Origin: a virus
DNA length: 64,000 nt
IMG/VR virus record: IMGVR_UViG_3300032323_003671
Coordinates: 1-64,000 of that record
Strand: one strand, 5' to 3'
Part shown: piece by piece, positions 10,765 to 53,558 of the stretch
How positions within the stretch are numbered: position 1 is the stretch's first letter
Layout of the letters: the number at the start of each line of letters is the position of its first letter
Program-made: the position numbers and the translations under genes
The notes under the pieces: model-generated
Seen by the model: only the letters and a program-made list of their open reading frames with translations
Database searches by the model: none
What the model was told of the DNA's origin: nothing

Positions 10765-11370
10765 ATGGAAAGAGAAAAAACAATAACTCATTATGAGGAA
10801 AATCCTATTACAATTTCAATTAAAAATCCAACAAACGAACAAAAAAAATGGGTTTTATTTGGGACAAATGTATTTTTACATGAAGATAATTTTGGTTCGG
10901 ATGAAGGATTAAAAATTGAGAATAATGGTAATTATTCATATCAATCAATTTTACAAGATTTATCAAGCAAAAAAATACCAATAAGTATGTTGAGAATAAT
11001 GACTGACGTTAAAGTCAATTTTAATCAATGTATTTATTTTGAAAAAATAACTAATAGTACAAAACAGTTTTCTTCTGATAAAATATCTGAACATCTTGAT
11101 CGATATCAATTTCAATCAAATATAATTCAAATGCCATGCAGCCTATTTTTAGATAAAGAACATACAATATCTGGAAAAATAGAACCTAATTCACAAATGA
11201 TTTTCTCATTTTATTCTCCAAAATTAGAATCTGAAGAAAAAACTAAATCCAGAAAAATTATCAAGAAAGAATATTTTTTACTTCGAATGGCAAGAAATAT
11301 TTATTCAAAAACGAAAACATTTAAAACAAAATTATTGACTTTAATAAAAATAAATAAGCATGGAAAATGA
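10765..11370 (+). CDS. early-region paralog of the candidate major capsid protein
   Basis: NPITISIKNPT...VLFGTN...FG...SYQSIL...DRYQFQSNII aligns with 37422 NPYVIQYVNST...VLFGYN...FG...SYAALI...DAYQFQSDIL. Confidence 0.7.
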   Translation: MEREKTITHYEENPITISIKNPTNEQKKWVLFGTNVFLHEDNFGSDEGLKIENNGNYSYQSILQDLSSKKIPISMLRIMTDVKVNFNQCIYFEKITNSTKQFSSDKISEHLDRYQFQSNIIQMPCSLFLDKEHTISGKIEPNSQMIFSFYSPKLESEEKTKSRKIIKKEYFLLRMARNIYSKTKTFKTKLLTLIKINKHGK

Positions 11371-14778: not shown

Positions 14779-14780
14779 TT

Positions 14781-17190: not shown

Positions 17191-17193
17191 GTT

Positions 17194-17201: not shown

Positions 17202-17207
17202 AAATAA

Positions 17208-17771: not shown

Positions 17772-18241
17772 TATTTTACAGTTGTAACGACAGTTTTATC
17801 AGGTTTCATAATCGTAAACTCTACTCTACGATTTTTATCTCTACCTTCTGAAGTTTCATTACTTGCAATTGGCATGGATTCTCCTTTTCCATCGGTAGCG
17901 ATTCTTGAAGCATCAACTCCTTTAGAAACTAAATAATTAGAAACTGCAATGGAACGTTTTTTAGAAAGTTCTAAATTGCTTGCATCACTACCAACGTTAT
18001 CGGTATGTCCAACAATTTTAATTTTCCAGGTTGGTTCTTTCACCAGTACATCTGCTAATTCATCTAAAAAAGGAAAAGATTCCGCTTTGATAATTGCTTT
18101 ACCATATTCGAAATTCAGATTATCAAACACATCTCTCAATGTTTGTTTGTCGGTCTTGCGATATTTAGTATAGTACCAAATACCTCCAATTAATAGAAGT
18201 ATTACTGCGCCAAGTGCGATTTTTTGATTTTTTTTCATCAT
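17771..18241 (-). CDS. OmpA-like peptidoglycan-binding protein with N-terminal TM
   Basis: GHTDNVG...NLELSKKRS..V..YL...G.GES.P...N.....R..NRRVEF. Confidence 0.93.
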   Translation of the reverse strand: MMKKNQKIALGAVILLLIGGIWYYTKYRKTDKQTLRDVFDNLNFEYGKAIIKAESFPFLDELADVLVKEPTWKIKIVGHTDNVGSDASNLELSKKRSIAVSNYLVSKGVDASRIATDGKGESMPIASNETSEGRDKNRRVEFTIMKPDKTVVTTVK

Positions 18242-18924: not shown

Positions 18925-18929
18925 AGTTC

Positions 18930-19067
18930 TTAGTTAAATACGATTTTACGATTATTCTTTTTTTCGTCTTGTGTTTTCAGAGGACGAACTACAAAATAGT
19001 AATAGCCAGTACCTGCTAATAAAACGACTGCACCTAGCCCTAATATGAGTTTAAAATTTGATTTCAT
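18930..19067 (-). CDS. small membrane protein (45 aa)
   Basis: MKSNFKLILGLGAVVLLAGTGYYYF...NNRKIVFN; follows TACATTTG promoter at 19094-19087. Confidence 0.7.
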   Translation of the reverse strand: MKSNFKLILGLGAVVLLAGTGYYYFVVRPLKTQDEKKNNRKIVFN

Positions 19068-19193
19068 TTCTTTGGTTTTTGTTAAACAAATGTAATTATT
19101 TTATTCTTTATTGAATGAATAACTATTTATATATCAGTTTTTTTACTATAAAATAGGGATTTTTTGATTAAAATTGTACATTAATTTAAAGGT

Positions 19194-22100
19194 TTGAAAA
19201 AGATAAAAAAAACTAGCGATGCCAAGGATGGAGGACTATTTGTTGGCAAATCACATGACGATGGTGGGATTCCTGCTATAGTTGTAGATACTGGACAACC
19301 TATTGAGGTTGAAGGTGGTGAAGCTATTATTAATAAAAAGGCCACAGCCAAACACTGGAAAGAATTATCAAAAATCAATCAAAGTACTGGTGGCGTTCCA
19401 ATTCCTCCTCCTGATCGAGCAGATGAACTTATGGACAAGTTTGAAAAGGGAGGAAAGTTAACTCAATTGGAGAAAAAAACTATTCACAACAAGTGGAAAA
19501 ACTTGGTGAATATGACATACACTGAATTGAGAAAGTATTATGATTCCAAAGATGGCAAAACTAGTGGCTTAACTCAAAAAGAAGCTGATGATTTAGGTAT
19601 TGATTCAGGTCGTGAAAGTGCTGTATGGATCATGAAAATGAAACGCACAAACTACAAGGATTGGACACCTGAAATGTGGCGTTGGGCTAAAAAACAAATA
19701 AGTTTTATATCTCGAATGAGAGGTAACCAAGGCGAGTTAATGGAAAATGGCAGAAGAACTCCAAAATTAAAATCATTATTGATTTGGGGTCATAATCCTT
19801 ACAAATATGCAGGAGGCGGAGACATTCCAGCTGAAGCAAAGTATCCAGTTGATGCAAATTCTCTTCAAGTAATGCTTAAATATGCATCAAAAGAAGATGC
19901 ACCTGCTATTCAGGAACAAATAGCCAAACTTAAACAAGAACATAAAGAAAAGTACCAAAAGAATCGGAAAAAATATAAAGGAGGTGGTAAACCATCGGAT
20001 ATTGCCTCTGCAATACTTGGATTGAAAGCACTTTTGAAATATCCAGAATTACTAGAAAAATTTGATAAGGAAAATATAGAATACACTATCAAAGGATTAG
20101 AAATTCTTGATAAAATGCATCCTTCTGAAATTGATCCTAACGATACAAGTAGTGGAGTGAAATTTATTCCATACAAGGATTACGAAATAATGTATGATCC
20201 ATATACTAAAAACTACTATGCTAACGATGCTGAATTTGATTCTTTAGAAGATGCAAAAGCATTTTTAGATTCAGGTAAAATTTCTGATTCAATTAGAGGT
20301 GCAATGCATTATGAAGTGTATGGATATTCAAAAGGTGGGTCAGTAAATAATCAAACACTTTTAGCACCAAATGGTAAACCAACTAAATTAACTCCAGAAC
20401 AATACAAATTAGTTCGTACACCAGAATTCAAAGCCTGGTTTGGAGATTGGGAAAATGATCCTGAAAGCGCAAGTAAGGTAGTTGATAGTAATGGTGAGCC
20501 TAAAATATATTATCAAGGCGTACCATATTATCTATATCCTAATGGAAAATTTATTTACGAAAAAGATAATAATGGAATATTTTTTACATCTGATAAAAGA
20601 ATCGCTTTAACATATGGGGTAGTAAAAGAAGTATTCATCAATTGCAGAAATCCAAAAGATATCAGAAATTATTTTGGATTCGATGGTAAAAAAATACCGA
20701 ATAGTGTCAGAAATGATAGAAACTATGATTTTAAATCGGAAGAAGAAATCCAATATGCCAATTCAGATAAAGAAGTCATTAAATTTTATAAGGAAGTTAT
20801 CAATAAGTATGGTAAACCCATTGAAATAACTGTTGATTCTACTGGTGAAAAATTCAAATTTAAGAGTGTAGAAGAAATAAAAAAATTCTTAATTCCAACT
20901 TCAGAAAAAGGATTTTCATTTTTGAATTTTACACGTAGAAGTCTTTTTTGGAATTGGATAGCAGAATATATTAAAAATTCTGAATACGATGGGATATTTG
21001 CAACTGATGAAGATCGTCTTTCTGAAGAAATATCAGATAGTGTAGTTGTTTATAATTCTAATCAAATAAAACTTGCAGATGGAACGAATACTACTTTTGA
21101 TTCTGAAAATCCTGATATTCGATTTGAAGATGGAGGATCAGTAAATAATCAACCACTTTTAGCACCAAATGGTAAACCAAGTAATCTATCGCCAGAACAA
21201 TACAAATTAGTTCGCACACTAGAATTCAAAGCATGGTTTGGCGATTGGGAAAAATTGATTCAAGTCAAAATGAATGATTCTGCTATAGATGAAATTTCTC
21301 TGAAAAAAATATCAGATACAGTAAGTAAGGTCGTGGATTCAAATGGCGAACCTATGGTGGTTTATCACACAACTGACAAAGAATTTTTTATTTTCGATAA
21401 AAAAAAATCAAAAGAAGGATTCTTTTTCTCACCTCAAAAAGAAAGACTTTCAGTATATAATAAATCAAAAATAGGTCAGTATTTTTTAAATGTAAAAAAT
21501 CCTTCTCACGAATTGTTTAAATCAGATGTGAATTATATTTTATCGAAAGGATACGATGGAATTATGGATTATGGCCATGCAAGAAAAATAAATGAATCCT
21601 TGTATGAAATAATTGTTTTCGAACCTAATCAAATAAAACTTGCAGATGGAACGAATACTACTTTTGATTCTGAAAATCCTGATATTCGATTTGAAGATGG
21701 TGGCAAGACTGATTTAACATACAAAGAAAAATACAACAAGAAATATGGGTATGATTTGGATAAGTCTCACAGTCTTGAAGAAATAGCATCAAAAACAGGT
21801 ATTTCACTTGAAGGGCTTCAAGAAATTTTCAATAAAGGTGTGGGTGCTTATAGAACAAATCCTGAAAGCGTTAGACCAAATGTAAAATCTCCAGAACAAT
21901 GGGGAATGGCTAGAGTTTATAGCGCAGTCATGGGCGGTAAAACAGCAAAGATAGATTCAAAAGAACTTAAAATGGAAGGCGGAGGCAAAACCGATTCAGA
22001 AATGAATATAGAAAGATACGTTGTCAAACCTAGAGTAAAATTTGGGATGGTATTTGGGTATGTTGTTTACGATAATTTAGAAAAAAAGAATTTGCCTTAT

Positions 22101-34516: not shown

Positions 34517-35356
34517 ATGTCAGATTCAAATCTTAGAGAAGCAGGTATGATGGCCATTACTGGTATTCAAGGTGTCGGAAAGACATACTTGAACCAGCAT
34601 ATTATTTACGACTATGTTCGTGATAAAGTGGCTATTAAAGTACGTGGTAGAAAGTGTCTTATTTTTGATACCAATGGTGAGTACACTAAAAGTCAATTTG
34701 AGAAAAATGGCATGCAAAACTTTGATGCCAAAATCATTGCCATAAAAGACGTTGGTCAATGGAGTAAGTCTCCAGGAATTGAATGCCGAAGAATTGATGC
34801 AAAAACTTTGCCGATCATGCAAAAGCGTGAGGCTATCGAGTATATCATGAGACATTTTAGAAATGGCATGTTAGTACTAGAGGATGTCAACACATATATT
34901 CTCAATGTAACACACATGGAGAAAATTGTATCAGGTCTTGTATCTCTTCGACATAGGGCAGTTGACATTTTGATTTCATATCAGTCTTTGCGTGTAGTAG
35001 AGCCTCGTATTTGGCAAAATAGCCGATGGGTGCGCATGCATTACCAAGCGGATAATGTAAATGATATCAAGGGTAAAGTAAATAACCCTACGATGTTTAA
35101 AATCGCTCAGTACGTTGTAAATAATCGTTATTTCGATGGTGATAAGCGTTTCTATGTTTACATTCACAATTTTGCCAATAAGATCGAAGGTGATTTTACT
35201 TTGGATGAATTCAAAAAAGCATGCGCTCAATATATCAATGCCAACAAGAAGTATTTGAAAGAATATAAAGAAATGAGTAATTGTTCAGATGCCGAAGCTA
35301 TTGAAGGATTAACAAACCAATATATTTCTCAGTATTATGGAAATGACAATCAATAA
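34517..35356 (+). CDS. A32/P9-like FtsK-HerA genome-packaging ATPase
   Basis: Walker A GIQGVGKT, IFDTNGEY, Walker B LVLED, arginine finger LRH, ISYQS...P.I.QN; 279 aa, no nuclease domain. Confidence 0.85.
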   Translation: MSDSNLREAGMMAITGIQGVGKTYLNQHIIYDYVRDKVAIKVRGRKCLIFDTNGEYTKSQFEKNGMQNFDAKIIAIKDVGQWSKSPGIECRRIDAKTLPIMQKREAIEYIMRHFRNGMLVLEDVNTYILNVTHMEKIVSGLVSLRHRAVDILISYQSLRVVEPRIWQNSRWVRMHYQADNVNDIKGKVNNPTMFKIAQYVVNNRYFDGDKRFYVYIHNFANKIEGDFTLDEFKKACAQYINANKKYLKEYKEMSNCSDAEAIEGLTNQYISQYYGNDNQ

Positions 35357-36990: not shown

Positions 36991-37006
36991 TATTTGTTCA
37001 TAATTG

Positions 37007-37048
37007 ATGCCTTGTATCCTTTACCAATAAGGGATACAGGGCATTTTT
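37007..37048 (+). terminator. intrinsic terminator
   Basis: ATGCCTTGTATCCTT...AAGGGATACAGGGCAT followed by a T run. Confidence 0.8.
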
Positions 37049-37049
37049 G

Positions 37050-37140
37050 CGTTATTTGAACAATAAGTTAACAAGTGTAGTACTTAATCATTTTCTAAAT
37101 TTGAATGATTAGTTCTTATTAATAACTTAAAAATCGAAAA
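37050..37140 (+). promoter_or_regulatory. late promoter module, copy 1
   Basis: TTTGAACAAT...TAAATTTG (37096-37103)...AAAATCGAAAAATG; resembles modules at 47160 and 53062. Confidence 0.65.
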
Positions 37141-37245
37141 ATGAAAAAACCAACTTTAAACGCAACAGACTTTGTAGTAATCTTAGGATTATTCATGGTA
37201 GGTTTGGCTGTTCACCAGAAAGTGGTAGCACCTCGCCTCAAATAA
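37141..37245 (+). CDS. 34-aa membrane peptide upstream of the capsid gene
   Basis: MKKPTLNATDFVVILGLFMVGLAVHQKVVAPRLK*, first ORF after the promoter. Confidence 0.7.
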   Translation: MKKPTLNATDFVVILGLFMVGLAVHQKVVAPRLK

Positions 37246-37421
37246 GTCTTTATCGCTTTAGACTTGTTCTGCTATCAGCTTTATGTTGAATGTGTAGAAT
37301 TCGAAAAAACAAAAGTGAAAAAGTCAGCGTATCGCTGGTTTGAAATTTTTTAGAGTTTTAGTAAAAACTTGACAATTAAACCAATTTAAAAACCTCCTTA
37401 ATAGGAAAAATACTTAAAAAA

Positions 37422-38174
37422 ATGAACGCAACAGAAAAAGAATTGCATCGCTTTTTAGGGGTAGCTGAAAAAATGTCTGGATACGATGGTATGGACTATG
37501 AAGGCGACCTTTCGTCTTTTGACGATATGGATTTCTTTGATGGTGGAGAAGGTATTAACGACCCGATGTCTTTCGCTGATGGTGGAGCATCAACCGTTAA
37601 CGTTTCTAACCCATACGTTATCCAATATGTTAACTCAACACCAGGTACTCTTACCGCTGTGTTGTTCGGTTACAACAACTTCTTTAATGATCCAACAGGT
37701 CAGTTCGGCAACCCAGTGGGTATCACCGTAACCAACTTGCAAGGTTCATCTTATGCTGCCTTGATTGGTCAGACTTCAAACAAAGCATTCCAAATTGGAA
37801 AATGGCGTTTTCAGTCTGCTTCAGCTGGTCAGTTGAGCCAAACACTTACTGTATCACATTTCGATGCGAACGGTAACCAATACTCAACTCCGTTGAACTT
37901 ATCAATCATGCGTGATGCTTACCAGTTCCAGTCAGATATCTTGGATATCACCAAGGTAATCACAGTGGACGGTAACACTCAAATCACGTTCCCATTGTTA
38001 GCGTTGACTACATTGGTAATCTCTATGTTCCCAGTAAGCGTTGTTAGTACTAAAGCAGTACTTAACGGTGGTATAGCTCTTAACAAAGCAGTTGCTCCAC
38101 GTCTTTCTGGTAAAAACGTAGCACCAGTGATTATCAACACTAATCAAAGAGTTGGTGGCGTAACCAAAGCGTAG
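37422..38174 (+). CDS. candidate major capsid protein (beta-rich, possibly single jelly-roll) with acidic N-terminal propeptide
   Basis: High-expression codon bias (TTC/AAC/ATC/GGT/CGT), own promoter and terminator, near the packaging ATPase, two paralogs; fold not verified. Confidence 0.6.
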   Translation: MNATEKELHRFLGVAEKMSGYDGMDYEGDLSSFDDMDFFDGGEGINDPMSFADGGASTVNVSNPYVIQYVNSTPGTLTAVLFGYNNFFNDPTGQFGNPVGITVTNLQGSSYAALIGQTSNKAFQIGKWRFQSASAGQLSQTLTVSHFDANGNQYSTPLNLSIMRDAYQFQSDILDITKVITVDGNTQITFPLLALTTLVISMFPVSVVSTKAVLNGGIALNKAVAPRLSGKNVAPVIINTNQRVGGVTKA

Positions 38175-38198
38175 ATAAAAAACCGATCGCTATAAAAG

Positions 38199-38234
38199 AA
38201 AGGCAGAGTCGTATAACGTCTTTGCCTTTTTTTT
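38199..38234 (+). terminator. intrinsic terminator after the capsid gene
   Basis: AAAGGCAGAG...CTTTGCCTTT plus T tract. Confidence 0.8.
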
Positions 38235-38249
38235 CTTAAAATCATTAGT

Positions 38250-38750
38250 ATGAGAAGAAATCCAGAACGTACAAATCAACTTCAACAGCGAGTAACTTTA
38301 CTTGGTACTATTGCCAATGGTTCTACAGCAAAAGCTAGAAACCTATTGAAAAAATACAAGATGCCAGATGCAGTTAATCATGAAGATTTAGAATATAAGC
38401 TAACTCAGTTATATCATCAGCAAGGTGATAAGATTGAGCTTGAAAAAGATTTGGCAATGATTCATCCTCACAAAGATTTTATCTTGAAATATTCTCAAAT
38501 TAAAAAAGAAGAGCCAACAGATATGGAAGCACCTTTGGAAAAAACAAAGCAAGCCATTACAGAAACTAGTTCTTGTGCTTGTGGTTGTGGATCAATGGGA
38601 TTTGATGGAGTAAAATCGAATGCATCAGGTTATTCAAATGCTGCTGGTGATGCCTCAGTAGCAAGCCCAATGGGTACAAATACAGGCATGATAGTTATCG
38701 GAGTTCTTGGGATGGTTACAGTCCTTGCATTAACTCTAAATAGACAATAA
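38250..38750 (+). CDS. putative virion membrane protein (C-terminal TM, CACGC, SNAxG motifs)
   Basis: KSNASGYSNAAG; hydrophobic tail. Confidence 0.7.
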   Translation: MRRNPERTNQLQQRVTLLGTIANGSTAKARNLLKKYKMPDAVNHEDLEYKLTQLYHQQGDKIELEKDLAMIHPHKDFILKYSQIKKEEPTDMEAPLEKTKQAITETSSCACGCGSMGFDGVKSNASGYSNAAGDASVASPMGTNTGMIVIGVLGMVTVLALTLNRQ

Positions 38751-39208
38751 TGGACGTAGTTTGCCTTGATAAGACACCAATTCTGATTCATAACACAGAG
38801 CATAAAAACTTTGTTGAAACAGATAAGTCAGTTCCGAAAGGAACAAAAATGACAGGTCAATTTATGAATGTTATTGGCAAAAGAAAAGGAAAAGAATTTA
38901 CATATCGCCTATTCAAAGATGAAGATGGCGTAATTGTTTACCAAAATAAAGTAAAACCGATGGAAGTAACATTGAACGCAACAGGAGATGATGAAACAAG
39001 AGTTATCACATTCCCAAATGTACAAGACAATCTAAAAACGCATGCTATTGTTTCAGCAGGTGCAGCAGTAATTGCTTTTGCTGTGGCAAAACGCATGGGC
39101 AAAGCCAACAAAACAGCATTTTGGGCAGCGGCAGGTTCTGCAGTTGTAGGTTATGTAGCTGTAAGTATGATTGCAAAAAACCAAAGAATTAAATACCAAA
39201 AAATTTAG
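38750..39208 (+). CDS. putative virion membrane protein (two C-terminal TMs)
   Basis: TLNATG followed by an Ala-rich hairpin. Confidence 0.7.
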   Translation: MDVVCLDKTPILIHNTEHKNFVETDKSVPKGTKMTGQFMNVIGKRKGKEFTYRLFKDEDGVIVYQNKVKPMEVTLNATGDDETRVITFPNVQDNLKTHAIVSAGAAVIAFAVAKRMGKANKTAFWAAAGSAVVGYVAVSMIAKNQRIKYQKI

Positions 39209-39210
39209 TC

Positions 39211-40458
39211 ATGGAAGAAATTCAAAACTATAACCAGGTTGTCGTAAATCTTGATTCTGAAGGTGGTATTAGTGTGAACACACCTACAACTACTTTCGAG
39301 GAGGCGTTTATGGGTGAAGAATTTTCTGAAGCTCAGGGTAAAAGAAGAGCAAAGAAACAATCTCGCAAAATCCAAAAAACTACTGATAAGCGTGCAAGAA
39401 AAACTGCAAAACGTGGCAAAAAGTCTGATCGTCAAGAAGAAAGACTTGGCAGACGTGCTACTCGTAAGTCTTTAAAACAAGACATTCGTGATGAGCAAGC
39501 GGAACGCAGACAAACACGTAGGTCAAGAAGACCATCTGCAGTTGATCAAATCGTTTCAGCAAGGGAAAAAATGCGCCCAGAAGAAGAATACGTTGAAGAA
39601 ACATTCCAAGAAGGTTTCAGAGATGAAGAATATGATAACAAATATTATCCTTCTGATGAGCAAGAAGAACAAGAATACAATGATTCTGAAGAATTAGATC
39701 AAGATTACCAAGATGATCAAGATTATCAAGATGAATCAGAGTATGAAGAAGACGAAGCTGATTATGGTGATGATTCTGAATCCGAAGGTATGGATGAAGA
39801 AATTATCTATGACGAAGAGAATAATTTCACAGGAGAAATGAGTGGTAAAAAACCAGTTCCCAAAGAAATTATGGATTGTTGTATGAAAATCGAATGGAAC
39901 GATGAACTAATTGCTCGCTTGAAAGATGCAAAGCAAAAAAATAGTTTGTCTGATGTTTCAACGATGAGAATTCAAGATGTCATTGATGAGAAACAATCTC
40001 GCATGAATGAATTAAAGAGTTCACTTGATGATTATGCTAAACAATCTCCTGAGAATGCTGCAATTGCGAAAGAAGCTAGAATGAAAGCTCGTAAAGAACG
40101 CATGAAAATTTGTCCTTATCCAATTCGCAAAAGACTTCGTGAACGTGGAATGAGTGATCAACAAATAAATGAGTGGTGGACAAAAACAGGTCAACAAAAA
40201 ATTGAGCAAAAAATGTCCAACGCTGCTGGTATGCCAAGCGTAAGTACTCGTGAAGAATCTACAAGAATTGCAGATTTTGAAGAGCCAGTTTTGGACTATG
40301 ATCAACCAAAAACACAAGTAGTTGATATTGATGAGAATGGAGAAGTAAAATCAAACATGACAGGTGAAAATAAAGACTTTTGGAAGTCTGTACTCATTGG
40401 TTCATTAGTCGGTTTTGCAGCTATTTATGCCATTAACAAATACAAATTGTTGAAATAA
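39211..40458 (+). CDS. putative virion protein with basic and acidic tracts and C-terminal TM
   Basis: FSEAQG plus R/K tract, D/E tract, SNAAG, SNMTG, TM; related to 54434. Confidence 0.75.
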   Translation: MEEIQNYNQVVVNLDSEGGISVNTPTTTFEEAFMGEEFSEAQGKRRAKKQSRKIQKTTDKRARKTAKRGKKSDRQEERLGRRATRKSLKQDIRDEQAERRQTRRSRRPSAVDQIVSAREKMRPEEEYVEETFQEGFRDEEYDNKYYPSDEQEEQEYNDSEELDQDYQDDQDYQDESEYEEDEADYGDDSESEGMDEEIIYDEENNFTGEMSGKKPVPKEIMDCCMKIEWNDELIARLKDAKQKNSLSDVSTMRIQDVIDEKQSRMNELKSSLDDYAKQSPENAAIAKEARMKARKERMKICPYPIRKRLRERGMSDQQINEWWTKTGQQKIEQKMSNAAGMPSVSTREESTRIADFEEPVLDYDQPKTQVVDIDENGEVKSNMTGENKDFWKSVLIGSLVGFAAIYAINKYKLLK

Positions 40459-40730
40459 TGACTATCTATCAAACACTTTACAATTCTGATAACAAGGAAG
40501 CTGAATATCAGAAAAGAGGTAAAACCTGGTACAAAAGAAAGAAAGGTTCAAGTGAGAATTGGTATAAAGTGGATTCTAAATATTTTTCCAATTTGAACTC
40601 TAAATTTAAAGATGCACCATTTCTTTACAACTATACTACTACTGCAAAAGTAGGAGCGGCAGCGTTATTGGTTTTAGCTGGTTACATCACTTATAAGAAG
40701 TTTTATGGACTACAAAAGATATCAAAATAA
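40458..40730 (+). CDS. small membrane protein
   Basis: C-terminal TM. Confidence 0.7.
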   Translation: MTIYQTLYNSDNKEAEYQKRGKTWYKRKKGSSENWYKVDSKYFSNLNSKFKDAPFLYNYTTTAKVGAAALLVLAGYITYKKFYGLQKISK

Positions 40731-41316
40731 GCATCGTAAAATGATGAATAAACTTGGTCAGATTATCGTTACTGATAAATCAGACTTTGTTTCTATGCTT
40801 GATGCATCAAATACTCCTTACGCAAGTCAGGATGATTCTGATTTAATCAAGGCATTCATTATTGATATTCCAGAAAATGATCAGTTGAAAGTTTTGACTT
40901 CATACATGCTTGAAGACAAACTTTCGGCAACTCCATCAGTAGATAATGAAGCAGTTTATGAAAACTACGAAACTATTTACAATTATTGGGATTTTGATGT
41001 TACTGAAGATTACATGAAATCAAATGCTGTAGGTGCTATTGCAGGTGCAGTAAGTGCAGGTGCAAACTTGACAAATACTGCATTACAAGGCCGACAACAG
41101 CGTAAATATGGTGCTACAATGGCAGCACAAAAGCAAGCTGAATCAAAAACAGAGCTTTTAAAAGGATTAATCGCTCAGAAACAAGCGGAGGCGGATAAAA
41201 CTAAATCCATTGAAGAGAATAAATCCAAGACTAAAAGAAATCTGATTATTGCAGGATCTATTGTCGCAGGATTGACAATTGTTGGCGTGGCTATTTACTT
41301 TATAAGAAGAAAATGA
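40705..41316 (+). CDS. putative virion membrane protein
   Basis: KSNAVGAIAGAV, coiled coil, C-terminal TM ending RRK. Confidence 0.7.
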   Translation: MDYKRYQNKHRKMMNKLGQIIVTDKSDFVSMLDASNTPYASQDDSDLIKAFIIDIPENDQLKVLTSYMLEDKLSATPSVDNEAVYENYETIYNYWDFDVTEDYMKSNAVGAIAGAVSAGANLTNTALQGRQQRKYGATMAAQKQAESKTELLKGLIAQKQAEADKTKSIEENKSKTKRNLIIAGSIVAGLTIVGVAIYFIRRK

Positions 41317-41420
41317 GAAAGATTTTATCCATAATCGCTTTAGGTGGTGTCCTTTATGGTATTTATAAAGGATATGAAAGAGCCAAGCGAACTCAGCAAA
41401 ACGTAAAATTGCAATCATGA
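41313..41420 (+). CDS. 35-aa membrane peptide
   Basis: MRKILSIIALGGVLYGIYKG..., ATGA-coupled at both ends. Confidence 0.6.
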   Translation: MRKILSIIALGGVLYGIYKGYERAKRTQQNVKLQS

Positions 41421-41731
41421 AACTCAGTAAAAAACATTATATGATTGGTGGTGGATTGCTACTCGCAAGTTTGGCTGCATATTACTATTTTGGTTCGGCA
41501 ACAGTAAATCAATTTTACGAATTCGAAGTAGCTTCTAATCAATCAGGCCAAGGCATTTTCTATAGCGTAGATATGCGTAAATATGAGAAAGCTAGAAATG
41601 AGTTTTCAAGGAACTTAACTCGTTCAGAAGCCAGAGAATTGATTAACTTAGTAAAACAAAAAAAATATAACCAACGATATGAAACCCTAATTAAAAAATG
41701 GGGATTGACATCGGTTAAATCTGAAAAATGA
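41417..41731 (+). CDS. membrane protein (N-terminal TM)
   Basis: IGGGLLLASLAAYYYF. Confidence 0.7.
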   Translation: MKLSKKHYMIGGGLLLASLAAYYYFGSATVNQFYEFEVASNQSGQGIFYSVDMRKYEKARNEFSRNLTRSEARELINLVKQKKYNQRYETLIKKWGLTSVKSEK

Positions 41732-42225
41732 AAAAGTCATATATCATAACAAAAGACGTAAAATCTCCAGTTGTTGTAAGTAGCCAAGTCGCTCACAAAC
41801 CAGCACAAGTAAGATTTCAGACATTTCGCAGAGGACAAATTGTTCAAGGTGAATTAAAACATGCAGACAATAAGCCTGCATTTGTTTTGGTCGGACGTAT
41901 GTGTGTCATTCCAGTAAATTGCGTAAAAGAATTGCAAGGAAAAGAAATTACATCAAATTTCAATGATCAAGATGGCCAAAGCCAAGCACCTGCTCAAAAG
42001 AAAACAATTCAAGTAGAGAATCCAAAAATCAAATACATGGATGCCCTTTTGATTGGTGGTGTGGTTGGATATGCAGCAGTGCATGTAGCAATTCAGAAAG
42101 GTTATATTCAAAGTGAAGATCCCAAAGCAAAAATTTATGGTGCTTTAGGTGGCGCAGTGCTAGGCATGTACCTAGTATATAGAAATGTTAGTAGTCAAAA
42201 ACCAAAAACAACTCCAAAACAATGA
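41728..42225 (+). CDS. putative virion membrane protein (two C-terminal TMs)
   Basis: Architecture like 38750. Confidence 0.7.
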   Translation: MKKSYIITKDVKSPVVVSSQVAHKPAQVRFQTFRRGQIVQGELKHADNKPAFVLVGRMCVIPVNCVKELQGKEITSNFNDQDGQSQAPAQKKTIQVENPKIKYMDALLIGGVVGYAAVHVAIQKGYIQSEDPKAKIYGALGGAVLGMYLVYRNVSSQKPKTTPKQ

Positions 42226-42587
42226 TTAGTGTAGAAACAGCTCGTCCAGTATATTCAGCTTTTGGTGGTAAGGATCTTACTCCAGAACAAAAGAAAGAAC
42301 GTCAAAAAAAACGTATCGAAAAAGCAAAACAAATCTATCAAACTGCAAAAGAGACAGGTAGCTTAACAGCACTTGAAAATATTGCAATGAGAGCAGGTGC
42401 GCCATTAGCTCCCACAACTGATCCAAACTCAGGTGGTGGTGCAGGTGTTGGCACAAATGGTGATCCAAAAGGAAAAGGATGGGCAGACCTATCTACTCCT
42501 TATAAAGTAGGTATCATTGGTGGCAGCCTTTTAGTTGTAGGTGTAGCTGTTTGGTATTTTGGATTTAGAAACAAAGCAAAGAAGTAA
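42222..42587 (+). CDS. putative virion membrane protein, paralog of 54982
   Basis: MISVETARPVYSAFG vs MIEVNTARPVYSNAIG; basic tract; C-terminal TM. Confidence 0.75.
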   Translation: MISVETARPVYSAFGGKDLTPEQKKERQKKRIEKAKQIYQTAKETGSLTALENIAMRAGAPLAPTTDPNSGGGAGVGTNGDPKGKGWADLSTPYKVGIIGGSLLVVGVAVWYFGFRNKAKK

Positions 42588-43363
42588 TGGAACAAACTTG
42601 GGAAACGGATAAAAGATCGCTTTCCTTGAATGTTTCAATTAAATGTCAAGGCAAATGCAAATTTCGTGTAGTTGCCACAGATTTTAATGTAAACACCAAG
42701 TATGCTGATCGTACAATTGAAGTAGATGGTTTTCGAACAATCTATTTGTCTTTTGTAACATCTCCAGAGAAAGTGAGAATCATTGTAACTCCAAAAGGAG
42801 ATACAAACAACTATTTGGTGGATATCAAAGAGAAACCACTAAAGACATATCAGATTTATCTTGACGAACAAGCGAAGAAATTTGTAAAGTTTGCACAAGA
42901 ATTTTCTAGTGTATGTGGATACTCTAAAGCAACACCACAAGGCCGATTTTTCAGAACTAAGGACAAAGAGTTCTCAATTCGTTTTTATCCTTTCATTTCC
43001 CAAAATGGAAAAGTAAGCACCTCGCCTGCTAGAATTGGCCACAATACTGGTATTATTGACGTATCTAAACTTCATTTTGATAGATATACAATACCAATGA
43101 GAATGATTATTCTTTTACACGAATTTTCTCATAAGTATCGTAATCCTAAGATCGATCTTGAAATATCAAATGAGTTTGGGGCAGATTTAAACGCATTATA
43201 CATATATTTGGGATTAGGTTACTCCAAGGTGGATGCAATCTTTGTTTTTGCTAATGTATTTTTGAAAGCTCAGACCGATCAGAATATAATGCGCATGCGT
43301 AAAATCATGGATTACATTCAGAAATTCGAAAATGGAGAAATCGCCAAACCATTGACAAATTAA
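42587..43363 (+). CDS. zinc metalloprotease (gluzincin-like), candidate maturation protease
   Basis: ILLHEFSH followed by NEFGAD (HExxH...ExxAD). Confidence 0.7.
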   Translation: MEQTWETDKRSLSLNVSIKCQGKCKFRVVATDFNVNTKYADRTIEVDGFRTIYLSFVTSPEKVRIIVTPKGDTNNYLVDIKEKPLKTYQIYLDEQAKKFVKFAQEFSSVCGYSKATPQGRFFRTKDKEFSIRFYPFISQNGKVSTSPARIGHNTGIIDVSKLHFDRYTIPMRMIILLHEFSHKYRNPKIDLEISNEFGADLNALYIYLGLGYSKVDAIFVFANVFLKAQTDQNIMRMRKIMDYIQKFENGEIAKPLTN

Positions 43364-43364
43364 T

Positions 43365-44309
43365 ATGAATATCTGGGAAGAAGATATCAATGAATGGGAT
43401 GGATCATCTTACGATGATTTGTTCGAAAATAATTCTCAAAACTTAGATGATTTTGAGAATGAACCTGATATTATGGATATCGAGGATATCGATTTTAGTG
43501 GCATTAATGGAAAATCAACAAAAGAAAAACTTCGCAAAATTTCCAGAAAGACTGTTTCAGCTCGTATAGTTCCCAAAAAAAAAAGACTGAGTAGTGATAA
43601 GTCAATTTCAAGAAAAATAGTTGCGAAGCGAAATGTTGAATATGTTTTTAGTAAAAACAAAGGCCGACAAACCACCACTGAGATAAAACTCCCTGATAAT
43701 CGTGAGGTTCTTATTAAAGGTGTAGATGAGTTTATTCTATCCCAAGGTAGTGATCAAGTAAAGAATATAGGTTATTACAAAGGCGAGAAACTTCGTGAGC
43801 TTGTCCTAATCATAAATAATACTACTCCAAACGACATTGACATTGAATTTTTCAATCTTTCAACTCCTTTGGATTACATGTATGCAACTGCCAATAACTT
43901 AAACAATCTGATTCAAGTAGCTGGTGATAACAAGGTTAGTTACTCCGACATGTTGTTTAACTTATTAGCAAATCCAACAATTTTGCCAAACGCAAAATTT
44001 AGTTTATCTGGGCCTTTCAAAGATGCTCAGTATGCTCAACCAATGATTTTCAAGAATAAAAATATTGCAGGTTTTGAAAAAGTACATCCAATTCAAAACT
44101 CCTTGAATATCGATATAGATCAGAATCAAAATGATATTGTTTATTGGGATATAGAACAGAGCTTAGGACGATTATTTTGTCCTGATGGTATGGACGTGAT
44201 GCAATATAAAGTTCTTGCAGGCATGTCCGTTATTTTTGGCTTCTACTATAAGCAAATCAGTTTGAAAAAAGTATTTATCCCAGAACTTAGAAATAAAGGT
44301 ATCCTATGA
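43365..44309 (+). CDS. second capsid-family protein with acidic and basic N-terminal extension
   Basis: C-half INNTT...SYSDML...QP...DIDQNQNDI...DG..V.Y.VLA...V aligns with 37422. Confidence 0.6.
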   Translation: MNIWEEDINEWDGSSYDDLFENNSQNLDDFENEPDIMDIEDIDFSGINGKSTKEKLRKISRKTVSARIVPKKKRLSSDKSISRKIVAKRNVEYVFSKNKGRQTTTEIKLPDNREVLIKGVDEFILSQGSDQVKNIGYYKGEKLRELVLIINNTTPNDIDIEFFNLSTPLDYMYATANNLNNLIQVAGDNKVSYSDMLFNLLANPTILPNAKFSLSGPFKDAQYAQPMIFKNKNIAGFEKVHPIQNSLNIDIDQNQNDIVYWDIEQSLGRLFCPDGMDVMQYKVLAGMSVIFGFYYKQISLKKVFIPELRNKGIL

Positions 44310-46543
44310 TGCTCGATTCACAAAAATATCAGAATACTACTAGGACAATTACTGGTCTAGTGAATTTCGTATTTAATACGGATACGATTATCATTTGCGA
44401 TACAACACTTGGGCCAGTGCAAATCGAATTGTTAGAAATTCCTGCAAATAGTTGGAACACAACTAGGAAATTCTATTTTTTAGATTCTGGTAATGCTACA
44501 GCAAATAACATTACGATTACTGCACCTGCAGGTTATACGATTAATGGTCAATCTACTTTAGTATTGAATGCCAATAATCAAAATGCTTTAGTTCGAGTGG
44601 GATCAAATACTGATTATCTCGCATATACTTCTACTGGTAATGGGTCAAACCTTGCAGTTCTAAATCAAGGCGTTCAGATTACTCCTAGTGCTGTTTCAAT
44701 GAACTTCTTAGGAATTCAAGCTACAGCTGTAGGAAATGCTGTTACGATTCAGAATAATTTCATTTCTGGAACGTATGCTCAGATCGCTTTACTTGCATCT
44801 TCAAATCAATTGATACCAAGTCAAGGATATCAAATTACCAATGCCTTGTTTGGATCATTACCAACAACAAATATATCGGTCTATCTTCAAGCCATTTCTT
44901 CAAATGAATTATCGTTATCAGGTTCAGGTTATTTCTTCAATGCCGATTACGATGGTGCTGGTGTCTATACAGGAATCCCTGGTTTTGTTGCTCAATTAGG
45001 TATTTGGTCTTTGAGCCTATTGCCTGTTATTGGAGACGTATGTATTTGGAACAATTTACATTACGTGAATACGACAGGAGCAAATGGGTTGACTAATCCT
45101 CAATCAGATGCAGTAAACTGGACTTTGTTAAGCTATAGTGCTACTAACGGTTATATCGTTGAAGTAGATGCAATAGAATACGATTTTAGCACCAATAGAA
45201 TTATCAGAAGAACGGATAAAAGATTAAATACAGTCGAATGGTGTATTGCTTTTGCTGGATATGATAGTTTCAATCATTTTAGATGGGGTGATAACAAATG
45301 TTTCAACAATATTATTTTAGGATCTGTTCTTTACAATTGTAATAATCAAAAAGATTCAGTATTCAATACTTTGAACAAGTCTTCGGTTATTGTAGGATCT
45401 GCCACTGTAGGTGGTAGTGTAGAAATGACTCAAAATCAAATTTCAAATTCTTTGGTATTCATGCCTTTTGAATCATTAGGAGGCGAATCATTCTTTTTGA
45501 ACTCAATTAATTTTTGTTCACTTGTATTTGGTAAGAACAATTTTACAATTACCGACACAGGCACTTTCGGTAGAAATGTCATGAACAATTCTACTTTGGC
45601 AAATATTACTTTTGAAGGCCAATACACAAATAATATTTTTGATAATTGTACTTCTGGCACTTTGAATCAAAATAGATTTGGTTCTATTTCATATAATGTT
45701 ATTGATAATTCAAATTTTGATATTTTCAATAATAGTGGAGTAGTTTTAAATAATGAAATCAGATCTAGTAGTACATTCTCTATTACTAGTCTCAACACTG
45801 GTGATATTATTTCTAATGAAGTTTCATTTGCTTCAGTATTTACAATTGGCATTAACTCATCAAATATTGAGAAAAACATTATTAAGAGTACTTCCAATGT
45901 TTTATTGGCAAACAATTCAAATCAGGTATTTAATAATTTCATTATGAATACCACATTTAATTGTGCGAATACTCAAACTTCTAGAGTTATTGGAAATACA
46001 TGGTACACTTCTTCGGTAAGTATTGCTAATTGTAATGGTAACGTTACTGACAATACATTCAAAAATAGCAGTCTAACAATTTCAACATTAAGTGTATCAA
46101 TTTCTGAAAACAATGTCAATAATGGAACGCTTAATGTAACAACTTTGAGTACAGCAATTTCTGGTGGTATTTATATCGATGGAGTAGCCACAACGCAATA
46201 TGTACTTAATTTGAATGATCCTGCAGTGTTCAATGCAGGAACTTTAACTATTGCAAATGGTATTGCTTCATTCTTTGGAGTTTACACTTTGCTAAATTGT
46301 GCAGGACAAAACATTACCAAAATTGTAAATCCAAATCCAAACGTTCCAATTCGTTTAATTCCAGATGCAAACACTGTTATTTTGACTAGAACAGCAGTAG
46401 GTGGAGCGGTAGCAAACGATATTATTGCTTCCACAGCCACAGCATCATGGACATTGACTTATAGAGCATCAGGTTGTGATTCAATTCAGTTAAGAAGATT
46501 AAATACTCTCAATGGAGTAATAGAAACAGAAATTTACGTTTAA
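44306..46543 (+). CDS. spike/receptor-binding protein with beta-helix region
   Basis: N/S/T-rich repeating beta-strands; N-terminal domain related to 53181. Confidence 0.65.
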   Translation: MMLDSQKYQNTTRTITGLVNFVFNTDTIIICDTTLGPVQIELLEIPANSWNTTRKFYFLDSGNATANNITITAPAGYTINGQSTLVLNANNQNALVRVGSNTDYLAYTSTGNGSNLAVLNQGVQITPSAVSMNFLGIQATAVGNAVTIQNNFISGTYAQIALLASSNQLIPSQGYQITNALFGSLPTTNISVYLQAISSNELSLSGSGYFFNADYDGAGVYTGIPGFVAQLGIWSLSLLPVIGDVCIWNNLHYVNTTGANGLTNPQSDAVNWTLLSYSATNGYIVEVDAIEYDFSTNRIIRRTDKRLNTVEWCIAFAGYDSFNHFRWGDNKCFNNIILGSVLYNCNNQKDSVFNTLNKSSVIVGSATVGGSVEMTQNQISNSLVFMPFESLGGESFFLNSINFCSLVFGKNNFTITDTGTFGRNVMNNSTLANITFEGQYTNNIFDNCTSGTLNQNRFGSISYNVIDNSNFDIFNNSGVVLNNEIRSSSTFSITSLNTGDIISNEVSFASVFTIGINSSNIEKNIIKSTSNVLLANNSNQVFNNFIMNTTFNCANTQTSRVIGNTWYTSSVSIANCNGNVTDNTFKNSSLTISTLSVSISENNVNNGTLNVTTLSTAISGGIYIDGVATTQYVLNLNDPAVFNAGTLTIANGIASFFGVYTLLNCAGQNITKIVNPNPNVPIRLIPDANTVILTRTAVGGAVANDIIASTATASWTLTYRASGCDSIQLRRLNTLNGVIETEIYV

Positions 46544-47063: not shown

Positions 47064-47111
47064 AAAATAAGTATTTTTATACCAGATATTTTGATCCATC
47101 GCCTAATTTAG

Positions 47112-47143
47112 AGTGCATTTTTATCATGAAAATGCACTTTTTT
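47112..47143 (+). terminator. intrinsic terminator
   Basis: AGTGCATTTT...AAAATGCACT plus T tract. Confidence 0.75.
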
Positions 47144-47595: not shown

Positions 47596-50124
47596 ATGTC
47601 AAGTAGGTCATTTGGTTTTTCTGGTGGAAATAGTGGCAGTGGCCCAGTTCCTCCAGGTGGTGTAGTAATATTAGGTGCAGGTGCAGGATCATCCGAAAGA
47701 TGTGGTAATAGTAATTCCGCATCGGGTGCTTATGCAACTGGATTAGGTCGTTGTAATAATGCCTCAGGAGATTTTTCAACTATCAGTGGCGGTTATTCTC
47801 ATTCTGCTAGTGGATGCTATGCTACAATCAGTGGCGGTTACAATAATAATGCTAGTGCCTATTCAACTACAGTTGGAGGTGGTGCATTTAACACTTCATC
47901 AGCATTTGGTTCAACTGTATCAGGAGGAAGGGCAAACACAGCGAGTTCTTTGTATGGATACATAGGTGCTGGTTTTGCGAATACTGTATCAGGAAACTAT
48001 GCCTTAATAAGTGGCGGTAAATTTAATACATCTAGCTGTTATGCATCGGTTGTTGCAGGTGGATATGGTAACGATGCTACAAATTGTTTTTCTGCAATAG
48101 GTGGCGGTTTAGACAACACATCTTCTGGTTGCGTTTCATTTGTTGGTGGCGGTAAACAAAATAGTGCCAGTGGTCAATATAGTACTATTAGTGGTGGTTA
48201 CAATAATAACTCTAATTGTTATTCTTCTTCAGTAAATGGTGGTGCATTTAACACTGCAAATTCTTTTTATTCAGTTGCAACTGGTGGTAGAGGAAATACA
48301 GCTTCTGGTTTTTCAGCTACAGTTAGTGGATATTTTAATACATCCTCAAATGACTATGCTGTTGTATCTGGTGGTGCATTTAATACATCGAATGGAGTTC
48401 TATCCGCAATATTAGGAGGTTTACAAAATACAGCATGTGCAAATTATTCGGTTATAACTGGCGGTAGACAGAATGGTGCAAATGGAGGATATTCATTTAT
48501 AGGCAGCGGAAGACAAAATACAACCAGTGGTGATTATTCAGTAGTAACTGGTGGAACTTTAAATCGTGCAACTGCTAATTGTAGTGCTGTAGTTGGTGGT
48601 GCATTTAATTGTGCTTCTGCAGACTTCGCATTTATTGGTGGCGGTGGACGGAATACGATATCTGCTTTTCAATCAACTATTTCAGGAGGTTATTGCAATA
48701 ATATATGTTCTGGTTCTCAATGGTCTACAATTGCAGGCGGTTGTTGCAATTTAGTTGATCCTAATTCATCAGTTTCAACAATTGGTGGGGGTTCATGTAA
48801 TGAAACAGGTAATGCTTATTCAACAATAAGTGGAGGATACAAAAACTTTGCGTTTGGTATTTATTCAAAAATTGGTGGTGGTAGACAAAATAGTGCCAGT
48901 GGTCAATATAGTACTATTGGTGGCGGTGGTGGTAATCCTGTTATTGGTTACGGAGGCAACGCAGCCTTTGGTGGTCATTCAACTATTGGTGGAGGACATA
49001 GTAACAGTACTTCAGGATATTATGCTACCATTGGAGGTGGTTATTGTAACCAAGCAACAACTACTTCAGCAACAATAAATGGCGGTAATCGAAATACAGC
49101 CTCTTCCTACGCATCATTTATTGGTAGTGGTACTCGGAACACAGCATCGGGAGATAATTCTATTGTGGTTGGTGGTTTTCTAAATCAATCTACTGGTGAG
49201 CAAGCTAGTATAGTTGGGGGTAGATTTAATTCTGCAACAAGCCCATATAGTTCAATTGTTAATGGTTTAGCAAATTCAATTCAAACTACAGACCCTAATT
49301 TCCTTGGTGGTAATTACTATTCTCATATTAGTTCAGGTTGTTGTAATACAATATGTACATTTATAAATGATTCAAATCCTCTATTACTTAATAGTTATTA
49401 TGATTCTTCTTTTATTGGAGGTGGTAGAAATAATATAATTCGTAACACAATTAGCTCATATTATGGAAGTTGTTTTAATACTTTTTCTTTATCTCATGTC
49501 ATTTCTGGAGGTAATTTAAATAGAATTGATATTAATACACTTCCGTTTCTTGGAAATTTTAGATATTATCCATCTACAATATCAGGTGGATATAATAACA
49601 TTATCCAAATGCCTAATTTTGGTATTTTAAATGGATCTACAATTGGTGGTGGATTATGTAACTCAATTGATTCTGCTTCTTATGCTACAATTGGAGGTGG
49701 TAGATCTAATTGTATGAGTTATATAATGGGATCTCCTGACTATTCAACAATATCAGGTGGTTATGCCAATTCTTCTGTTAATTCTTGTAATGCTATTTCA
49801 GGTGGTGCATTCAACACAATTTCAGGAAGTAGATCAGTAATTGGTGGAGGTAATAATAATACAATTTCAGCATATACAAGTTTTATCGGTGGTGGTGTTA
49901 TTAATACAATTTCAGGAACATACTTATCTGGTATCTTAGGTGGTGGATTTAACACAATTAGTGGTTACAATAATGCTTTTATAGTTGGTTCAAATATTGT
50001 AGCTGATAGATCATGTACAACATTTGTGAATAACCTTTCAATAAAAAATATTCCAACAAGTGCTGCTGGTTTACCTTCAGGATCAGTATGGGCAAATGGT
50101 ACTATTTTAGAAATTGTACCGTAA
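47596..50124 (+). CDS. glycine-rich repeat fibre/spike protein
   Basis: Many ~15-aa S-x-I-x-GG-x-x-N-x-A repeats. Confidence 0.75.
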   Translation: MSSRSFGFSGGNSGSGPVPPGGVVILGAGAGSSERCGNSNSASGAYATGLGRCNNASGDFSTISGGYSHSASGCYATISGGYNNNASAYSTTVGGGAFNTSSAFGSTVSGGRANTASSLYGYIGAGFANTVSGNYALISGGKFNTSSCYASVVAGGYGNDATNCFSAIGGGLDNTSSGCVSFVGGGKQNSASGQYSTISGGYNNNSNCYSSSVNGGAFNTANSFYSVATGGRGNTASGFSATVSGYFNTSSNDYAVVSGGAFNTSNGVLSAILGGLQNTACANYSVITGGRQNGANGGYSFIGSGRQNTTSGDYSVVTGGTLNRATANCSAVVGGAFNCASADFAFIGGGGRNTISAFQSTISGGYCNNICSGSQWSTIAGGCCNLVDPNSSVSTIGGGSCNETGNAYSTISGGYKNFAFGIYSKIGGGRQNSASGQYSTIGGGGGNPVIGYGGNAAFGGHSTIGGGHSNSTSGYYATIGGGYCNQATTTSATINGGNRNTASSYASFIGSGTRNTASGDNSIVVGGFLNQSTGEQASIVGGRFNSATSPYSSIVNGLANSIQTTDPNFLGGNYYSHISSGCCNTICTFINDSNPLLLNSYYDSSFIGGGRNNIIRNTISSYYGSCFNTFSLSHVISGGNLNRIDINTLPFLGNFRYYPSTISGGYNNIIQMPNFGILNGSTIGGGLCNSIDSASYATIGGGRSNCMSYIMGSPDYSTISGGYANSSVNSCNAISGGAFNTISGSRSVIGGGNNNTISAYTSFIGGGVINTISGTYLSGILGGGFNTISGYNNAFIVGSNIVADRSCTTFVNNLSIKNIPTSAAGLPSGSVWANGTILEIVP

Positions 50125-53180: not shown

Positions 53181-53558
53181 ATGCCAACAGTACAAGGAAC
53201 AAACTATCTTCGAGTAGCTACCACAGCAGTATTAGCAGATAGCACATACGATCTTACTTTGAAAGATAACAATGGTAACGTTTTCCCAAAAACAACCATT
53301 GAAATTAACACAACATTGGGTGATGGAGAGTTCAATCTTCCTTCAATTGCCTCTTTAGGTGCAGCAGCACAAAATTGTCAGGTAGTTATCGTAGTGGATA
53401 ACTCTACAAATGATGTAATTGTTGATCCTGCATTAACCGATAAAATCGGTGGTTTAGCAGCAGGCGCACCATACACTATTGCGGCAGGTGCAGCAGGTCA
53501 AAATATAGTTCTATATCCAGTGGATGGAACTACATGGGGATTTGTTTACACAGCATAA
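53181..53558 (+). CDS. small structural protein related to the N-terminal domain of spike 44306
   Basis: TIEINTTLGDGEFNLPSI vs TIICDTTLGPVQIELLEI; own promoter and hairpin terminator (53579-53608). Confidence 0.65.
   Translation: MPTVQGTNYLRVATTAVLADSTYDLTLKDNNGNVFPKTTIEINTTLGDGEFNLPSIASLGAAAQNCQVVIVVDNSTNDVIVDPALTDKIGGLAAGAPYTIAAGAAGQNIVLYPVDGTTWGFVYTA

Follow-up and report, generated by a model that had tools for sequence, protein, structure and literature searches.

The question raised by this locus is whether two proteins encoded by one viral genome, termed here pA and pB, are related to each other and whether they build the shell of the virion. The window analyzed is a stretch of 64,000 nucleotides, positions 1 to 64,000 of the 73,262-base IMG/VR record IMGVR_UViG_3300032323_003671, a record that is listed as linear and that CheckV estimates to be 48% complete. 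In the window, which has a G+C content of 29 to 37%, pA (250 amino acids [aa]; open reading frame [ORF] at 37422-38174) and pB (314 aa; 43365-44309) sit within a long series of plus-strand genes. An initial annotation, made from the letters and translations, had noticed a collinear pattern of motifs in pA and the C-terminal half of pB, and it had proposed either a capsid made of two related single jelly-roll proteins, as in the Halopanivirales, or a pair of major and minor capsid proteins.

pA and pB share one homologous domain

Comparison of pA and pB by BLASTP showed no similarity in the claimed region, and the best match (E value of 0.51) lay in the acidic leaders with which both proteins begin. 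This means that the pattern is below pairwise detection and that profiles are required. When the shallow family alignments of pA and pB (A1 and A2, with 23 and 25 sequences, respectively) were compared using hhalign, the probability was 58.9% and the E value was 9.3e-5 over 69 columns spanning the D..Q.Q.DI / DG zone. A diverse pA-domain profile compared with 121 pB-family sequences gave a probability of 95.8% and an E value of 7.4e-9 over 140 columns, aligning residues 65 to 206 of pA (37614-38039) with residues 146 to 297 of pB (43800-44255), both on the plus strand. The deep pA-domain alignment file has 153 rows, 151 of which are domains cut from the best 150 hidden Markov model (HMM) matches, and its effective number of sequences (Neff) is 6.2. 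As controls, the pB alignment was reversed in one comparison and shuffled by column in 10, and the ATPase family was used in another; these 12 comparisons reached probabilities of at most 1.0% and E values of at least 0.05. The motifs originally listed (N.T, SY..L, Q..Q.L/P, D..Q.Q.DI, and DG...I...LA) all fall in the aligned columns, so the collinear pattern was borne out; the shared domain, put at ~190 aa at the time, is actually about 145 to 165 aa.

Searches of individual ORFs gave the same picture. When every ORF of 50 aa or more in the 73,262-base record (245 in total) was searched with the pA-domain profile using hmmsearch, pA ranked at 1.2e-82, a third protein, pC, at 3.9e-45, and pB at 3.1e-5. 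The pB match covered residues 141 to 298, and the next-ranked ORF reached only 0.59. A profile containing no pB sequence at all (A4) found the pB orthologue in three of five related virus records, with E values of 5e-7 to 8e-6, and missed it in the other two. It is very improbable that the resemblance is one of chance or composition between unrelated proteins. The blank BLASTP comparison and the mere 58.9% probability of the initial profile comparison would fit such a resemblance, but the deeper profile match over 140 columns, its clean controls, the recovery of pB orthologues from other genomes by an independent profile, and the in-register secondary structures predicted independently for the two proteins all argue against it. 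The profile evidence thus confirms that pA and pB are homologous and carry one shared domain. Matched over the whole domain of ~145 aa, pA, pB, and pC are members of one unnamed family, which is defined here.

The shared domain is predicted to be a single jelly roll

AlphaFold2 monomer models of pA and pB were built on the shallow family alignments. The pA model has a confident core at residues 62 to 208 (37605..38045), with block values of the predicted local distance difference test (pLDDT) mostly between 64 and 93, and the pB model has a less confident core at about residues 137 to 300 (43773..44264), with block pLDDT of 51 to 86. Each core is a beta-sandwich, one per protein, so the fold supposed in the initial annotation was not contradicted by either model. 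In these independent models, the order of secondary-structure elements is the same: three strands come first, followed by a helix of ten residues, a long strand, a helix of five residues, and five further strands. The DSSP states agree at 106 of the 140 positions aligned by hhalign, compared to 36% on average and 51% at most in circularly shifted controls.

Among the structural matches listed for the two models, jelly rolls predominate and most are virion proteins. For instance, the best 13 matches listed for pB are all virion proteins. TNF/C1q, nucleoplasmin-like, carbohydrate-binding, and fiber-knob structures, however, match pA as well as capsid proteins do. Foldseek found no PDB match to the pA model at an E value of 1e-3 or better, and a search of BFVD returned generic jelly rolls only, with high root mean square deviations and best E values near 2e-4 (pA) and 6e-4 (pB). 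The Atlas structure search gave no usable match for pA, whose model the Atlas does not hold. A profile search of the PDB sequences found one stray match for pA (E value of 0.56) and none for pB. Neither the Halopanivirales nor Salisaeta icosahedral phage 1 (SSIP-1) nor any other particular capsid family was prominent among the matches listed, which may leave out some families.

pA, a putative major capsid protein

pA (37422..38174, plus strand) is read here as the precursor of a putative major capsid protein. Its 625 relatives at an E value of 1e-3 or better, counted at 90% clustering in a search of 5.8 billion sequences, include none with a name and none with a Pfam domain, and neither pA nor pB matches a family in Pfam, PHROG, or NCBIfam. 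The orthologues in 14 IMG/VR loci are 53 to 80% identical, and pA is as conserved as the ATPase described below. The protein has three parts. Residues 1 to 54 (37422..37583) form a probable propeptide, in which a helix (residues 3 to 18) is followed by an acidic Asp/aromatic tract finishing in M-S-F-A-D-G, and S50, A52, and G54 are almost invariant in A1; pLDDT is below 50 over residues 1 to 61. The jelly-roll core follows, and residues 209 to 250 (38046..38171) make up a C-terminal tail that also has a pLDDT below 50, yet contains many invariant columns, including K211, A225, P226, L228-N232, V236, I238, and T240. The tail is therefore a candidate arm contacting a membrane or neighboring subunits, the latter being a use that capsid proteins make of such tails. 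A tail motif, P-R-L-S-G-K-N-V-A-P-V-I-I, recurs at the N terminus of the relative P0292, ahead of a hydrophobic segment and a jelly roll; judged from these sequences, the tail peptide looks like a movable interaction module.

A strong terminator-like hairpin on the plus strand (37006..37045; 18-pair stem followed by a T run) lies upstream of pA, and a second one with a 14-pair stem is found at 47110-47140. Both are pattern matches only, and they seem to bracket a putative transcription unit running from pA to the gene at 46554. A 34-codon ORF with one hydrophobic helix (37142-37246) lies between the first hairpin and pA. The reading of pA as a shell protein rests on its ATPase-like conservation, its place at the head of the unit after the hairpin, and its near-invariant, unstructured tail.

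No listed holder of the sequence is recorded as RNA. The single run with an RNA-Seq label (X13), kept in the form of contigs, bears the mark "probably DNA." The longest of these contigs (1,058 nucleotides [nt], 37175-38232, exactly pA) was considered as an expression signal and dropped, because a DNA run (X8) breaks similarly, at 37009-38198. That the pieces from the two runs end at similar places points to sequence conservation and gives no support for expression.

pB, a putative vertex protein coupled to the spike gene

pB (43365..44309, plus strand) is a divergent paralog of pA and a putative vertex (penton-like) or second capsid protein. There are 425 relatives at an E value of 1e-3 or better in the same 5.8 billion sequences, again counted at 90% clustering and none with a Pfam domain; the name YggX on one JGI record of the family found no support in any result here. 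The N-terminal region (43365..43673) consists of an acidic leader (residues 1 to 49) and a Lys/Arg-rich arm (about residues 50 to 103), with pLDDT mostly below 50. The leader ends in D-F-S-x-x-x-G, in which D43 and F44 are invariant and S45 and G49 almost so, and the distance from leader to core varies in A2 from a few to about 150 residues. Across loci, pB is 37 to 69% identical.

The gene is always found immediately 5′ of a spike gene. In the window, the pB stop codon overlaps the start codon of the gene for a 745-aa Asn/Ser/Thr-rich protein, the putative spike (44306..46543, plus strand), which is 32 to 52% identical to its counterparts across loci. Each of the 13 IMG/VR loci extending far enough has a homologous spike gene 3′ of pB, as do L020 and L023, and the adjacency is kept in 13 of 13 loci and two loci on metagenome-assembled genome (MAG) contigs. 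pB thus presents a single jelly-roll gene adjoining a spike gene, as expected of a PRD1-type penton. In PRD1, the single jelly-roll penton P31 is encoded with the spike genes and the major capsid protein P3 is a double jelly roll; P31, like the penton of Sulfolobus polyhedral virus 1 (SPV1), is a vertex protein. Because pB evolves faster than pA, has a variable basic arm, and is in all relatives coupled to the gene of the spike, we read it as a vertex protein that would seat the spike.

Acidic leaders, a candidate protease, and the ATPase

Both pA and pB begin with an acidic leader whose end is marked by an aromatic-S-x-x-x-G motif in which S and G are almost invariant, and similar leaders are found at the start of many membrane proteins in the window and in the related contig L030. 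The N terminus of pC, which lacks the leader, coincides with the end of the pA leader. In L030, whose pA is 35% identical, six consecutive proteins (9832-15693), five of them with predicted membrane segments, share the leader N-F-E-P-x-x-S-N-x-L-x-E-x-F-S-x-A-x-G, a much clearer form of the motif seen on the window's own virion proteins.

The leaders are probably cut off during assembly, perhaps by the HExxH protein (258 aa; 42587..43363, plus strand) encoded just 5′ of pB. All 14 orthologues retain H178, E179, and H182 of the motif and a downstream Glu, E196, and identity across relatives is 49 to 74%. Family support is weak, with Peptidase_M56 matched in 3 of 14 members at a best E value of 0.025, and no PDB match was found. 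This invariant motif makes the protein a candidate zinc protease that may remove the leaders.

The P-loop ATPase (279 aa; 34517..35356, plus strand), 56 to 84% identical in 13 loci, is weakly assigned from its sequence as a genome-packaging ATPase of the FtsK/HerA type. Its Pfam matches are below cutoff (DUF87 [HerA] at 21.9 bits against a cutoff of 23.2, with an E value of 2.2e-4, and TrwB at 1.1e-3). DUF87 or Zot is carried by 13 to 20% of the members of its neighbor clusters in the Atlas. No PDB match was found by sequence.

A conserved module in contigs without recognizable head-tail genes

The 14 IMG/VR loci with pA orthologues are on contigs of 19 to 146 kb, all records of the group are incomplete by CheckV, and the holders come from 11 studies of aquatic, freshwater, and wastewater metagenomes. 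In all 13 sufficiently long loci, the gene order is p143, p388, ATPase, (p159, GT-like), pA, m166, m152, ..., m203, m165, ..., HExxH, pB, spike, and it is the same on two MAG contigs; in the related loci, m166, m152, m203, and m165 have syntenic orthologues. In the window, the series of small genes between pA and pB (38250..42587, plus strand) encodes about ten small proteins with hydrophobic segments, mostly C-terminal, which are putative virion membrane proteins.

Binning has assigned contigs of the group to MAGs of Bacteroidota, Clostridiaceae, archaea, and giant viruses. Three of six MAG loci are labeled Bacteroidota, including Saprospira, and the others are in Clostridiaceae and archaeal bins. 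The host is probably a member of the Bacteroidota, a weak call given that the binning of viral contigs is unreliable. Two of the loci, L005 and L006, do not differ in gene spacing or in identities across the module and appear to be one virus filed twice; one of them carries the label of a giant-virus MAG contig.

Genes for a head-tail virion were not recognized. Among the 28 proteins scanned against PHROGs, there was no terminase, portal, HK97 capsid, or tail tube protein, and there were only two matches in the tail category: the product of the gene at 46554 weakly matched a tape-measure protein, and a glycosidase-like protein matched "lytic tail protein." The Pfam models PF05065 (Phage_capsid), PF03354 (TerL_ATPase), and PF04860 (Phage_portal) matched none of five related records, whereas control genomes were matched; this comparison used one model per function on incomplete records. 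The combination of HK97 capsid, large terminase, and portal that marks the Caudoviricetes was thus not found. Capsid_NCLDV also matched none of the five records, which is uninformative because the control genomes were likewise without a match. A tblastn search with pA, pB, pC, and the ATPase found nothing in 50,697 deposited phage genomes. Full-text literature searches returned no description of the group or its proteins, with the proviso that supplements of metagenomic surveys may list its contigs.

The domain occurs in additional paralogs, anchored forms, and tandem forms

An exhaustive HMM search combining the pA relatives and pC found 1,003 cluster representatives at an E value of 1e-3 or better, 489 of them at 1e-10 or better. 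Several of these contain the domain in two or three tandem copies, and membrane anchors are present in two. The third paralog in the window, pC (201 aa; 10765..11370, plus strand), is encoded in the accessory-gene arm; it was detected at an E value of 3.8e-8 in a sequence search of genomes and matched pA in BLASTP at 4e-10, with 23% identity over 168 aa. Paralog number in the group ranges from two to four. The contig L008 (146,216 bases) has, beyond the regular pA and pB, two extra pA paralogs next to its ATPase gene (2016-2783 and 2795-3523).

A 123-kb metagenome contig (L035) encodes a 655-aa protein with four tandem domains (17549-19516) as well as a 340-aa paralog with one domain (13723-14745). 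L035 and L032 represent a distant lineage (ATPase 36% identical) in which the pA-like gene is directly 5′ of the ATPase gene. In the pA-like proteins of both contigs (L035:9839-10648 and L032:4791-5615), a hydrophobic, transmembrane-like helix takes the place of the acidic leader at the start. The two- and three-copy relatives P0253, P0269, P0276, and P0304 have a common terminal ENKKWW motif. For P0304 and P0269 and for alignment A6, no locus was confirmed among viral contigs, and the metagenome scan recovered single-domain relatives and the four-domain protein of L035 and no contigs of two- to three-domain proteins.

Comparison with known tailless viruses

The Halopanivirales, such as P23-77 (VP16/VP17) and SH1 (VP4/VP7), are tailless viruses whose particles enclose a membrane. 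They have a small P-loop ATPase for packaging, and their capsid proteins are a related pair of single jelly rolls. The openings of the ICTV abstracts, as far as these go, and the P23-77 annotation agree with this design. The present system resembles it in having two single jelly-roll paralogs of unequal size encoded by separate, unfused genes, the fold being taken here from AlphaFold2 models. The differences are several. The pA and pB profiles reached at most 0.6% in hhalign against VP16, VP17, and VP11 of P23-77, the one member compared among P23-77, SH1, HHIV-2, and SNJ1, and no VP16/VP17 or VP4/VP7 chain was among the structural matches listed. In P23-77, the ATPase, VP16, and VP17 genes are within 2.7 kb (6740-9389), whereas here pA begins 2.1 kb past the ATPase gene and pB 5.2 kb past pA, an arrangement kept in 13 of 13 loci. 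Genome sizes are 48 to 146 kb in this group compared to 16 to 31 kb in the Halopanivirales, and the hosts are probably Bacteroidota of fresh or waste water compared to Thermus or haloarchaea. Acidic leaders on both capsid-like proteins further set the group apart. Of the features that mark the Halopanivirales design, the two genes for single jelly-roll paralogs are therefore found here, and a sequence relation to P23-77 and the adjacency of the genes are not; the interpretation given in the initial annotation is thus supported in part.

SSIP-1 is another large tailless phage (43.8 kb), with an internal membrane and a host akin to Bacteroidota. Its record gives no taxonomy below Viruses and no named capsid protein, and its proteins reached at most 0.5% in hhalign against the pA, pB, and ATPase profiles. 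When the pA-domain, pB, and ATPase profiles were searched against the 375 ORFs of P23-77 and SSIP-1, no match had an E value of 1 or better; over all hhalign comparisons with VP16, VP17, VP11, the P23-77 ATPase, and eleven SSIP-1 proteins, the highest probability was 1.6%, obtained for the window ATPase against that of P23-77. SPV1 (Portogloboviridae) is archaeal and has a small genome. Its structural match here is in the nonspecific range, with none listed for pA, and we know of no packaging ATPase of this type in SPV1.

Shell and vertex proteins, or another role

The explanation that best accounts for these observations takes pA as the major capsid protein, and pB as the vertex protein, of an uncultured, tailless, membrane-containing bacterial virus, and as a whole we regard it as about evenly balanced between right and wrong. 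The two proteins would be ancient paralogs with one single jelly-roll domain, both serving as virion structural proteins. pA would most likely be the major capsid protein because it is the most conserved beta-rich protein and the product of the first gene of the structural unit; two other small beta-rich window proteins are not core, one (53181) being found in three of five related records and the other (57278) in one of five. pB would most likely be a penton-like vertex protein on which the spike is seated; a role as second shell protein is less likely. The particle would probably be icosahedral with an internal membrane, as suggested by the lack of recognizable head-tail genes, the FtsK/HerA-like ATPase, and the many small membrane proteins. 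Three points weaken the case for these roles of pA and pB: their structural matches are nonspecific, their models depend on shallow alignments, and members that are membrane anchored, in tandem, or encoded in accessory regions could indicate a role outside the shell.

In a capsid of two major proteins, as proposed in the initial annotation, pA and pB would assemble together as heterodimers or mixed hexamers. Their single jelly rolls would stand upright in pseudo-hexameric capsomers, with pentons formed by pA, pB, or an unrecognized protein. The unfused paralogs are as such a capsid would have them, but the missing similarity to VP16 and VP17 and the missing Halopanivirales chains among the structural matches listed speak against it, as does the 5.2-kb separation of genes that P23-77, with its ATPase, keeps inside 2.7 kb. 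A fixed heterodimer also fits poorly with the two to four paralogs among relatives, and pB evolves faster than its supposed partner and is coupled to the gene of a spike required in few copies. Joint assembly of this kind is therefore unlikely. It is likewise unlikely that pA and pB lie outside the shell and that the shared domain is a beta-sandwich that binds ligands or associates with membranes (resembling TNF/C1q, carbohydrate-binding modules, or nucleoplasmin) and is engaged in virion-membrane organization, host attachment, or DNA or protein chaperoning, with the real capsid protein unrecognized or the particle not icosahedral. Such roles would account for the equal scores of these folds and capsid proteins against pA, for the relatives with transmembrane anchors, up to four tandem domains, or an accessory-region location, and for the long acidic tract beside a nucleoplasmin-sized core in pA. 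They would leave unexplained why pA is conserved like the ATPase and heads the structural unit, why searches of up to 146 kb revealed no other capsid candidate of any known fold, and why the best 13 structural matches listed for pB are all virion proteins; a packaging-type ATPase, moreover, implies a preformed container.

With pA as shell protein and pB at the vertices, the system would be of a known kind, a tailless virus with a membrane in which jelly-roll capsid proteins go together with an ATPase of the FtsK/HerA type, and the group itself would be new. Cultured tailless membrane-containing bacterial viruses are few and small, PRD1 having 15 kb; the records compared here have 17 kb (P23-77) and 44 kb (SSIP-1). 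The single jelly-roll architecture would then extend to bacterial viruses of 50 to 150 kb, and the module defines a group common in aquatic metagenomes. A bolder possibility, which we think doubtful, is that a widespread, undescribed lineage of tailless bacterial viruses, large at 48 to 146 kb, has a shell made of unfused single jelly-roll paralogs belonging to one sequence family, which in relatives also takes the form of anchored singles and of two-, three-, and four-domain fusions. If true, these would be by far the largest known viruses with single jelly-roll shells, and they would offer a living, sequence-detectable series from single to multiple jelly-roll capsid proteins, a direct handle on the origin of the double jelly roll. 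The single, anchored, and two- to fourfold tandem forms would allow its origin by duplication, a hypothesis of long standing, to be tested at the level of sequence, beyond folds alone. The pA and pB profiles would also let metagenome pipelines recognize contigs now binned as bacterial, archaeal, and giant-virus MAGs.

Other features of the window

Beyond the second hairpin, the plus-strand gene series continues with genes for an 842-aa Gly/Asn/Ser-repeat protein (47596-50124), an M15 peptidase (starting at 50088), a sulfotransferase (starting at 51940), and a holin-like protein (starting at 56044). The repeat gene has many contig joints that skip 400 to 1,500 bases in two DNA runs, reflecting either strain differences in repeat number or assembly collapse. 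The 125-aa beta-rich protein encoded at 53181-53558 has one to three tandem paralogs in the three related records that carry it, with none in the other two, and it may be a variable decoration or fiber component. The final 9 kb of the 73,262-base record has small minus-strand ORFs only.

Promoter searches of the window gave little. The Bacteroidota-type motif TAnnTTTG was not enriched (115 matches compared to 102 ± 9.6 expected) and was dropped as support for a strong pA promoter, its count being near expectation; a sigma-70 scan found fewer matches than expected. The upstream part of the window has three polyvalent-protein genes (with ART-PolyVal, LPD1, and LPD11 domains), a DnaB helicase gene, and a C5 methylase gene. 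On the minus strand at 16867-17210, ARAGORN detected a permuted transfer-messenger RNA gene with the tag peptide GNVIEMFPKLRAVA.

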